Assembly: GCF_024700885.2 (NCBI RefSeq)
Contig: NZ_CP117016.1
Reading direction: 5' to 3' (one strand)
DNA: 64,000 nucleotides
From: Escherichia coli
Lineage (GTDB): Bacteria; Pseudomonadota; Gammaproteobacteria; Enterobacterales; Enterobacteriaceae
Part shown: positions 12,001 through 15,000 of the stretch, piece by piece
Layout of the letters: each line of letters opens with the position of its first letter
How positions within the stretch are numbered: position 1 is the stretch's first letter
Position numbers: made by a program

Positions 12001-15000
12001 CAGATGCATCAAAGCGCCTTGATACGATTTATCAAGCAGCCAAAGCTATGAATAGACTCAATACTGGTAAGCAGTATGCTAGCAGCCTTGTGGATCAGCA
12101 AGTTAATAACTTCCTGAAAGAAAAGGGTAGTCTCGCAAAAATTTATGGAATAGCCTCAAAAGCTGCTGCGGCGGAAGGTATTACAAGCTTATCTGGTCTT
12201 CCTGGTGTAGGTGCAACAGGGGTGATAACGTCAGCATTGATGTCAGGGAAAACAAGCAGGATAAAGGCTGCTGATGCTCTACTGTCTTCTCCTGAGTTTA
12301 AATCAATGCTATTTCGCCTGCAAAACGCACCAGTAGACAGAGCAGAAGTGAGACGCGTAATAGAAAGGAAACTGATGCAATCTGGGGCATTTAAGAGATG
12401 GGAGAAAACCTTATCAACAGATGAAGCAAAAACCATTGCCCGCACGGGGATTATTACATGGCTCGCTAGTGACAGTTAGTCAACTTTGGTTATTTTGCCT
12501 TCTTTTTCTTGATGAACTTTGCATCCATCATCTTTTGATAGCCAAACTAAAAACTTTAAAACCTTAAACACAAGTACGGCTACTGCAATGAAAGCACCAA
12601 TTGCAATTATTGCTAGCGAAATTATTTGCATTGGTGCTTTTAATGCAGGGAAAATAGTGTAAATGATCGCGAAAACAGTAATTATGAGGAACCATCGCTT
12701 CACACCAACCTCCTTAGTTTTGAGCAGGATACCAGATGGTTTGGAGTGAGATAAAGGTTTGTCCACTTTTGGCTATAGCTTTATGTATCCGTGACGGATG
12801 TAATTATCACGGATGCATAAAAATTATATTTTAGTGTAATCTCTGATCGTCTGAATCGTGTAAGAACTCCATGAGACTTTGAACCGGAATTGGTTCTATT
12901 GATGATAATGTGAACACAGGAATATTGAGACTTTTGCAACGCTCAAACACTCCCTTATCATGAGTCCATACCTCGTCAGCATTAATTGCTCTTGCAATTG
13001 CTATTATTTGTCTGTCAAACTTAATTTTGTTTGCTGTACCTTCTGTGCTAATTTTCCTTAATTCTTTTAATGTTGGTATCGATGCGCATTCAATAGCAGC
13101 CAACTCATCAAATGATACAGTTTCGAAGCACGATAACGATTTGATAACATTCAGTTTTTCTTGTTGGTAATCTTTATGGATTCCAACTAAAAACTCCGCC
13201 AATACAGGAGTTGGAACGATGATTGTCCCGTTCTTGTTATCTATTCGATCAACAAGAGCTTCTGCTCTTCTTTTGGCATCTGGAATCTCAGAACCAAGTA
13301 TAGGGTCAGATAATCTATAATCGTGTTCTATATCTGATAGTAGGTATACCAGAATATTGGTATCTAAAATTACTCGCAATTTATCTTCCTCAGAGTCCTA
13401 AGGATTGAATCAACATCGCGTTCCTCGGACCACTGATCTCCAGGAACTTGCTTGATAGCATTAATAGCATCCTTGAGTGATGATTTTTTGAGCAATACAA
13501 ATGAAGTTATTTTTAGTTTCTTTAGCTCCCATTTGTTGTTCTTTTTTTCCCAGCACCCATCTCCTTTAACCCTAATATATTTGAATAGATGGGACCCAAG
13601 AGCTGCCGCCAAATCAGGGGTTGCCTCGCACTTGAATGTTTCACCGTTGGCTCCCTCAATACGCACAGGTATTGAGTTGTCTTTTCCGCCAACACTGTAT
13701 AGCCTTCCTTGAACTTCTGACGTTTTTGTTATGAGTAAAGGGATTGGCTCCTTTTTTACTCGCGGGAATGCGATAATGGTTGAGTGGTTTCGTCCGAGTA
13801 GTTTCGCTGAAAAACCATCATGCTCCAGTAAATTAACAATTTTTTGATACGCGGGTGATTTCTCTTTGGCTGAGAGAGAGGCCCTTGCTATGACAGCGTT
13901 ATAACAAATATCATTATCGACCCATGCATTTAAGTCAGCCGATCCTTCACTTACACAGTCGAAGTGAACAGAATCTGCAGAACCGTATAGATCTACGAGA
14001 GCAGACATATACTTGACCAACTTAGCCATTGACAGCTGGCCAGGGGTGGTTCCGTCAAGTTTTAATGTGAGTCCATTGCTTTTTTTCATTTGTCATCACG
14101 CGAGCCAATATCGATATGGTTAACTGTACGTCATAAGCCTATAACTTACTTTTGCTATAAATATTTTTCAGCGTTTCAAAGACCATCTTCTTAACAACGT
14201 CAGATTGCTCATCCGCGACTCGCTCAGCTTCGTCTCGATGGCCTACAATTGATGATGGCTTTGAGAGAGCATCCTGAACGATTTGTAATAACTCAGAGTT
14301 CATTGACCTTCCGTTAGCCTCTGCTCTTAATTTCAATTTTTCTCTTACTTCCAAAGGCATACGGAAGTTAAAGTGCGGATCGTCTCTAGCCATGCCATCA
14401 CCCCAAGTTAGTGTATTGACATGATAGAAGCACTCTACTATATTCTCAATAGGTCCACCGTGGACCTATATTGTGAGGTAAATATGAAAGGAATGAGCAA
14501 AATGCCGCAGTTCAATTTGCGGTGGCCTAAAGAAGTATTGGATTTGGTGCGCAAGGTAGCTGAAGAGAACGGGCGATCTGTTAACTCTGAGATTTATAAG
14601 CGAGTGATGGACAGCCTGAAGAGAGAGGGGATAACGGTATGAAGTTTATTGAGGTTGATGAGATTGGCTATGAGAATGCACTTGGTAGAGGTAAATCTTT
14701 AGTTAACGTTAATGGCATTGAGTCGATAAGGAGCGGTGAATTTACGGAGATCAGAATGATGTCAGGTGGAATCATTCCTTGCCGTGATTCAGTAGAGTCA
14801 ATCAAAGCAAGAATGAGTGGTCAGTGGCTTTATAACTACAGTGACTTACAAAAACAGTGAAGCCCCAACTGCGGGAACAGTCAGGGCTTCGGGTGTCAGT
14901 AAATCCGTGGAGAAAAACCAACATGAATAGTATAGCAATTTTAGAAGCAGTGAACACCTCTTACGTGCCTTTCAATGGTCAGCAAATTATCACCGCCATG

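Follow-up and report, generated by a model that had tools for sequence, protein, structure and literature searches.

A bounded cassette slot between arc and sar in the immI region of a P22-like Escherichia coli prophage, and a small occupant with a predicted FlbD/SwrD/RemA-like fold

In phage P22, the immI region is a textbook circuit in which the promoter Pant fires at infection and is shut by the repressor Arc, while Mnt keeps Pant off in lysogens (P22 biology; Susskind, Sauer and colleagues). The stretch of DNA analysed here, 64,000 nucleotides (nt) of contig NZ_CP117016.1 of Escherichia coli (assembly GCF_024700885.2), which is referred to as the window, contains a prophage with such a region, in which an open reading frame (ORF) of 73 codons, ORF73, lies between arc and the antirepressor gene ant. 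ORF73 is a real protein-coding gene under purifying selection. The interval that it fills, between arc and the antisense RNA sar, is a precisely bounded slot that is either empty, as in P22, or carries one of at least six interchangeable small ORF families, and natural prophages thus use the arc-sar gap of this circuit as a cassette site.

Variability of the region between gene 16 and gene 9 of P22-like phages, the 'ant moron', was described in 2008 (Villafane, Casjens et al., PMC2629481). In its passages on this region, that account stays at the level of whole gene content, and describes no precise arc-sar slot, fixed junctions or interchangeable small ORFs. The classical moron (Hendrix/Juhala) offers a second comparison: ORF73 is likewise an extra gene between genes that are adjacent in relatives, but it lacks a promoter and terminator of its own for expression from a repressed prophage. 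An earlier reading of the locus, made from the sequence alone (the sequence-only reading), had called ORF73 a small moron. As an extra gene it deserves the name; however, it is not a classical moron, since promoter and terminator are missing, nor is it a one-off insertion.

All five elements of P22 immI are also present in the window, at ~94% DNA identity, with divergently transcribed ribbon-helix-helix repressors Mnt and Arc, sar lying across the ant ribosome-binding site, and Ant encoded 3' of arc; immC lies outside the window. The mnt repressor gene (84 amino acids (aa); 14139-14393, minus strand) matches Pfam Arc (5.8e-27) and Repressor_Mnt (4.8e-13). Pant (14416-14444, plus strand) and Pmnt (14449-14421, minus strand), which are overlapping and divergent and occupy 14416-14449 with the arc and mnt operators, were found by a consensus scan as the promoter-like sites TTGACA-17-TATATT (11/12) and TTGAGA-17-TATCAT, and alignment revealed this region to be near-identical to the annotated P22 promoters and operators. 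The arc gene (52 aa; 14484-14642, plus strand; Pfam Arc 1.7e-27) corresponds to RefSeq WP_001555391.1 in identical loci. The sar RNA (14856-14922, minus strand) was recognized as Rfam RF00262 over its full length (1-68), at 83.6 bits against a gathering score of 43; a match to Rfam ctRNA_pGA1 that overlaps sar was sub-threshold (25.7 bits against 45) and was rejected. The ant gene (300 aa; 14923-15825, plus strand; Pfam P22_AR_N 2.9e-45 and P22_AR_C 1.2e-27) is followed by a terminator-like hairpin and T-run (15843-15862, plus strand) whose position matches the annotated P22 ant terminator. The mnt/Pant/arc/sar/ant circuit is intact, and ORF73 replaces none of its parts.

The difference from P22 lies between arc and ant. 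In P22 this gap measures 68 nt (arc ends at 15022 and ant starts at 15091), whereas here it measures exactly 280 nt, as first estimated, and a four-way alignment places ~209 extra bases in it, confirming that ORF73 is an insertion relative to P22. The ORF itself (222 nt; 14639-14860, plus strand) has the coordinates, 73 codons and translation originally read, and its ATG does overlap the arc stop (ATGA, 14639-14642). P22 Arc ends in ...ESFKKEGRIGA; the Arc of the window ends in ...DSLKREGITV, and this stretch encodes both a Shine-Dalgarno sequence (GAGGGG, within arc and 8 nt 5' of the ORF73 start) and the start. This 5' junction of final arc codons, Shine-Dalgarno sequence and stop/start overlap (14610-14642, plus strand) precedes all six cargo families, and the window contains a single instance of its pattern, GACAGCCTGAAGMGWGAGGGGRTNRCGGTRTGA, where shuffles contain none. 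At the opposite end, the TGA of ORF73 is fused to the sar terminator hairpin (14859-14890 in a terminator scan; fold z-score -4.5), which it abuts because full-length sar spans 14856-14922. The last codons of ORF73 are the template of the sar U-tract (ACTGTTTTTG on the minus strand), and the stop TGA with this hairpin and U-tract forms the conserved 3' junction. The sequence-only reading described the P22 spacer as a short one carrying the sar promoter; it is short, but holds the body and terminator of the sar RNA, Psar being located within the first ant codons.

An open frame of 73 codons at this base composition would arise by chance with a probability of ~0.0024; the G+C content of ORF73 is 39%, against 46% for the prophage. 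Alleles that are 95-100% identical to ORF73 contain just 15 variable sites (6/3/6 by codon position), which are too few to give power to a ratio of nonsynonymous to synonymous substitution rates (dN/dS), and the selection test therefore rests on a divergent homologue, the 84-aa protein P0006 of locus L005. This protein is ~60-69% identical to ORF73 (60% by BLASTP, 69% in a search of representatives and 68% in the alignment) and is encoded at the same position; its start overlaps the stop of a divergent arc (GTGA), and its own stop is followed by the same sar hairpin. The comparison yielded a dN/dS of 0.16 at a dS of 1.36, a 33-nt in-frame indel, and differences distributed 17/13/31 over the codon positions (Fisher p = 2e-7), while shifted frames of the same alignment gave omega values of 0.9-1.4 and 6-13 stops. 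The check for protein-level conservation that the sequence-only reading had proposed thus returns purifying selection, and the non-coding filler that it had offered as an alternative is rejected by the dN/dS value, the in-frame indel and the conserved frame.

As a sequence, ORF73 is not new. It is 'hypothetical protein orf73' in Salmonella phage vB_SemP_Emek (YP_006560572.1), and is hypothetical also in Escherichia phage vB_EcoP-611R6 (URC09203.1) and in RefSeq (WP_021572780.1); these versions and that in PHROG are 92-100% identical to ORF73 and are always encoded directly 3' of arc. The gene in Emek is followed by a different ant, of KilA-N type, and that in 611R6 is preceded by a divergent arc allele. 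Over its full length, ORF73 matches PHROG 11805, of unknown function (E 4.5e-52; residues 1-73 on profile positions 1-73 of 73). The exact protein is present on hundreds of Escherichia contigs, with close variants in Salmonella enterica subspecies, all named 'hypothetical'. The gene occurs in 50 of 5,426 complete E. coli genomes, each time right behind an Arc gene. The family is nevertheless narrow: eight clusters at 90% identity were counted among 5.8 billion proteins, and at 50% identity the 1.8 billion representatives contain just two. One apparent relative, P0009 (541 aa, E 1.8e-5, 8 matched stretches), was discarded as a translated tandem repeat. ORF73 is absent from P22, epsilon34 and over 50 further phage records, the supplements of two accessory-gene screens do not contain the cargo sequences, and a literature search for Emek orf73, its accession numbers and PHROG 11805 yielded no paper. 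What is added here is the assignment to a FlbD/SwrD/RemA-like fold and the six-family slot.

The slot was first seen through the spread of E. coli matches to the arc-ant region, where other 'hypothetical proteins' stood in place of ORF73. IMG/VR and metagenomes were scanned for the 5' junction (...DSLKREG(I/V)(T/A)V, GAGGGG, RTGA), and the cargo was translated from the embedded start. This gave six families of small ORFs, A to F, whose junctions are identical at both ends: every family begins at the same RTGA behind the same Shine-Dalgarno sequence, ends at a TGA fused to the sar hairpin, and carries before the stop A-rich codons that template the sar U-tract. Family A is ORF73 (8.2 kDa). Family B (89 aa, PHROG 27312), read by eye from its sequence, has a hydrophobic N-terminal stretch that probably spans the membrane, and a charged C-terminal part with a heptad-like pattern. 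Family C (57 aa, PHROG 17642) is basic, family D (67 aa, PHROG 7150) is cysteine-rich and frequently occurs as a premature-stop allele, family E (74 aa) has a CxxC...CxxC arrangement, and family F (80 aa) is FlbD-like.

Filled and empty slots are about equally common in IMG/VR, where 63 contigs carry a filled junction (A 11, B 11, C 12, D 11, premature-stop D 11, E 7 and F 0) and 66 an empty, P22-type one. Metagenome contigs yielded A 10, B 5, C 5, D 4, premature-stop D 1, E 1 and F 1. Among the complete E. coli genomes, the slot is filled in ~550, or about one in ten, with A in 50, B in 14, C in 93, D in 373 (intact and premature-stop alleles not separated) and E in 23. The cargo reassorts freely against the Arc and Ant alleles, which comprise at least four and at least six N-terminal types, respectively. 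The exchange is illustrated by strain p11B (L020), the flanks of which are 99.1% and 95.7% identical to those of the window around an unrelated cassette.

Several features of the occupants were noted in passing. Family D, by far the commonest cassette in complete E. coli genomes (373 of 5,426), is often left unannotated in RefSeq, and in 11 of its 22 IMG/VR copies (L035, L048, L051, L068 and others) a stop follows after 10 codons (MSKECCFLRH). The cargo ORFs are restricted to A-rich codons (K/Q/R/S) at their last two to three positions, which serve as the template for the terminator U-tract of sar (14848-14860 in the window, and the equivalent positions elsewhere). The resulting U-run (e.g. 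UGUUUUUG) is longer than the CAACUUU of P22, so that sar termination may differ between filled and empty slots.

ORF73 probably adopts a FlbD/SwrD/RemA-like fold. The model that AlphaFold produced from the single sequence was poor, with a predicted local distance difference test (pLDDT) score of 57.6, while AlphaFold2 with a ten-sequence family alignment reached 78.6, with a core near 90. The elements of this model (strands 2-8 and 19-23, helix 24-26, strands 27-32, 36-40 and 45-48, and helix 52-60) describe a predicted β1-β2-3_10-β3-β4-β5-α topology, as in FlbD/SwrD, RemA and LytTR, and the 33-nt indel that separates ORF73 from P0006 falls in a predicted loop. A Foldseek search of the BFVD viral models returned a 'Flagellar and swarming motility protein' as top match (E 8.9e-4; template modelling (TM) scores 0.69/0.78), with several further viral proteins of the same name below it. 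At the sequence level, nine of the ten ORF73 family members matched Pfam FlbD (PF06289), all below threshold (best E 0.007), and hhalign of the family against a 32-sequence FlbD alignment gave P 0.0077 in the expected register, with N23, I27, E28 and T36 of ORF73 on N15, I19, E20 and T28 of FlbD. The structural matches agree with this independent, weak sequence signal. Family F, as judged from its sequence, is a second and clearer FlbD-like occupant (Pfam FlbD E 1.7e-4; hhalign probability 90%, E 1.5e-6); it is named 'flagellar FlbD family protein' by NCBI, and was in the arc-ant slot in every context examined.

SwrD, of the FlbD family, forms hexameric rings of this topology and has RemA, LytTR and ComK as structural relatives; its ring interface carries an N-xxx-I/L motif, and a P-D-T motif lies at the periphery (bioRxiv 10.64898/2026.05.26.727983). 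Compared with the B. subtilis and Borrelia SwrD rings (PF06289), ORF73 is of the same size and has the same predicted order of elements, and the N-xxx-I/L, E and T positions align in register (N23-xxx-I27 at the predicted interface motif). It differs by an insertion of 9-10 aa in the β1-β2 loop, by an unconserved P-D-T motif in which E-F replaces P-D, and by an aromatic C-terminal tail, SGQWxYxYxDL, which is modelled with low confidence yet is conserved in the 60-69% homologue. Its context differs too, being a phage immunity operon and not a flagellar one. RemA (DUF370; PDB 7bme and 7p1w), an octameric, DNA-binding biofilm regulator, has an insertion of ~15 residues between β3 and β4 at which ORF73, like FlbD, is gapped. 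ORF73 would probably form a small ring oligomer.

Other searches around the fold were less informative. The sole ORF73 match in a sequence-profile search of the PDB, FAIM1 (E 0.18), was taken as chance, BLASTP gave no alignment of ORF73 with RemA, and a SwrD sequence used as a query retrieved no entry in the PDB copy searched. In tblastn searches of cultured phage genomes, family F found no match, and a bacterial FlbD query found one unannotated record. Judging from the BFVD matches, proteins of 60-80 aa labelled 'Flagellar and swarming motility protein', the name of the FlbD family, are common in gut phages that are uncultured (Siphoviridae, Myoviridae and Podoviridae sp.), and their role in phages appears unstudied.

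With respect to expression, a scan of 14445-14922 detected no promoter-like site and no terminator-like site on the plus strand. Lying between Pant and ant and overlapping the arc stop with its start, ORF73 is most naturally read as co-transcribed from Pant, as the sequence-only reading had it. It would then be translated in coupling with arc and made together with Arc in a short burst after DNA entry, before Arc shuts Pant, and it would be silent in a lysogen repressed by Mnt. Late P22 transcripts read through the immI region toward the tailspike gene, according to the part of the P22-like phage account that deals with them (PMC2629481), and ORF73 would be made again from such transcripts. 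Because it has no promoter or terminator of its own, and given the established biology of Pant, Arc, Mnt and late transcripts in P22, ORF73 expression should consist of an early, Arc-limited pulse and a late phase, and should be absent from the stable lysogen.

The polymorphism of the slot, its fixed junctions and the free reassortment of its cargo suggest that the occupants are not parts of the switch but have accessory functions that act in trans and are under diversifying pressure. Anti-CRISPR and anti-defence operons with an Aca autorepressor are a known arrangement of this kind, in which variable, unrelated small ORFs are expressed from a strong early promoter that the repressor shuts. 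The six unrelated cargo families beside the conserved autorepressor Arc resemble such acr-aca operons in gene arrangement, although here the repressor gene precedes the cargo, and Ant and an antisense RNA are encoded in the same operon. We propose that ORF73 is a real immI accessory cassette, expressed from Pant, whose product is probably a ring that would act in trans by binding a protein of the host or of a rival phage, with a role in counter-defence or host take-over like that of the variable anti-defence genes beside an autorepressor. We give this explanation as a whole a probability of roughly 0.55, its functional part being inferred.

A number of observations weigh against it. Searches of PADLOC, NCBIfam and Pfam found no defence or anti-defence family match for ORF73; NCBIfam and PADLOC likewise found none for P0006, nor PADLOC for the other cargos. 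The structural relatives RemA, LytTR and ComK mostly bind DNA and not proteins, and the known business of the operon is anti-immunity, which favors an antirepressor-type role. As for the fold, only two of the five AlphaFold2 models were confident, the hhalign probability for ORF73 and FlbD was only 5%, and ORF73 itself scores 12.7 bits against Pfam FlbD (E 0.096), short of the gathering threshold of 24.7, so that it is not a member of that family in the Pfam sense.

The main rival follows from that known business of the operon. The slot occupants would be small antirepressors, or helpers or modulators of Ant, directed at resident lambdoid repressors, and the diversity of the slot would track those repressors. 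ORF73 indeed lies in an operon known for its antirepressor and should share the regulation of ant; elsewhere, antirepressors as small as 60-100 aa exist (P1 Coi and CTX RstC), and a polymorphic slot would fit an arms race with repressor specificities. However, the cargo is not tied to particular alleles of Ant (at least six N-terminal types) or Arc (at least four), which makes co-evolution with Ant itself unlikely, and Pfam and PHROG profile searches detected no similarity to known antirepressor families. We regard this account as possible, if doubtful.

A bolder proposal is open to either line of thought. The slot would be a dedicated, Arc-gated 'pulse' site for interchangeable counter-defence or anti-immunity cassettes, with Arc in the place of Aca; the six families would be new inhibitor families, and ORF73 and family F repurposed SwrD-like rings that bind a host machine. 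As a whole we consider this speculative and unlikely. The machine might, for instance, be a 5:2 motor of the MotAB type or a defence complex based on such a motor, since MotA is predicted as a partner of SwrD (bioRxiv 10.64898/2026.05.26.727983).

The proposed protein-binding cassette must also be set against binding of nucleic acid, in which a RemA/LytTR-like ring would act on immI DNA, the sar/ant mRNA duplex or host promoters. The altered fla-che transcript levels of a swrD mutant (bioRxiv 10.64898/2026.05.26.727983) would be in keeping with such a regulator. Yet ORF73 is slightly acidic (pI 5.3, net charge -1.5) and is without the helical β3-β4 insertion of RemA that bears DNA-binding arginines, both of which lower the likelihood of DNA or RNA binding. 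Furthermore, RemA R18 appears by eye to fall on G26 of ORF73, and the other occupants, unrelated in sequence and varied in charge, argue against a shared cis target. It seems distinctly improbable that ORF73 acts in this way.

Very little credit can be given to a role in cis, in which the peptide would be irrelevant and ribosomes reaching the sar hairpin would tune sar pairing or ant translation. It would account for the fact that the six cargo ORFs and P22 arc all end 0-6 nt from the same hairpin, and for the Shine-Dalgarno sequence and start overlap common to all six. It does not account for strong purifying selection on the protein (dN/dS 0.16 at dS 1.36), for an indel placed in a predicted loop or for a conserved fold, and P22 works with its slot empty.

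Even less plausible is an arrangement like a type II toxin-antitoxin system, with ORF73 as toxin and the ribbon-helix-helix protein Arc as antitoxin and autorepressor. The order of the genes, with the ribbon-helix-helix gene first, the 4-nt stop/start overlap and the autorepressed promoter all recall such systems. Arc, however, has just 52 aa with no toxin-binding extension, P22 Arc functions without a partner, and Pfam, NCBIfam and PADLOC contain no toxin family match; the same Arc C-terminus precedes six unrelated cargo families, and such invariance speaks against cognate neutralisation.

Finally, a chance ORF or non-coding filler, to which so tiny a family, lacking relatives beyond 60% identity in a set of 1.8 billion cluster representatives, might have pointed, is practically dismissed by the open-frame probability of 0.0024, the dN/dS of 0.16 with an in-frame indel, a confident fold prediction that matches an independent weak sequence signal, and a frame that is intact in 50 E. 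coli genomes and found in both Salmonella and Escherichia.

The value of this locus is that of a clean, testable system rather than of a surprise, ORF73 being a phage accessory gene in a region known to be hypervariable. About half of comparable IMG/VR contigs have a filled slot, and the six small families should share an unusual expression, with an Arc-limited pulse, silence under Mnt and a return through late read-through. The conserved junctions ease the engineering and testing of cassette swaps. Moreover, the FlbD/SwrD/RemA fold group, which is poorly understood, gains candidate members among enterobacterial phage proteins whose hosts do not encode a SwrD themselves, Escherichia being without it (bioRxiv 10.64898/2026.05.26.727983), and these phage proteins might help to find the binding targets of the fold. 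If the cassettes do serve counter-defence or anti-immunity, the conserved arc 3' end and the sar hairpin would provide a handle in the search for more.

The surroundings of the immI region provided some additional observations. Next to mnt, at 12831-14089 on the minus strand, two genes overlap by 10 nt: one encodes a PIN-domain protein (182 aa, Pfam PIN 4.1e-10), and the other, upstream of it, a 239-aa protein without a family match; PADLOC found no match for this pair. The pair sits where P22 has sieA and orf59a, a place taken in other prophages by YafO toxin, by HicA/DUF1902 or by a ClpP-like gene. This position, adjoining mnt, appears to be another variable slot for accessory or defence genes. 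On the other side of immI, the tailspike ORF (16117-18795, plus strand) has 892 aa from its first ATG, the RefSeq start being 31 codons later, and combines a P22-like N-terminal head-binding segment with a C-terminal part that does not resemble its P22 counterpart. An identical immI occurs in strain LC-1302-2020 with a different, shorter tailspike, in a prophage remnant flanked by insertion sequences at another chromosomal site. Strain MLI114 is 100% identical to the window over 14400-14960, and by comparison with it the tailspike gene and a small ORF are the last of the prophage, ~19100-64000 being E. coli chromosome (ybhB, bioABFCD, uvrB and moaABCDE), which places the integrated prophage next to ybhB.

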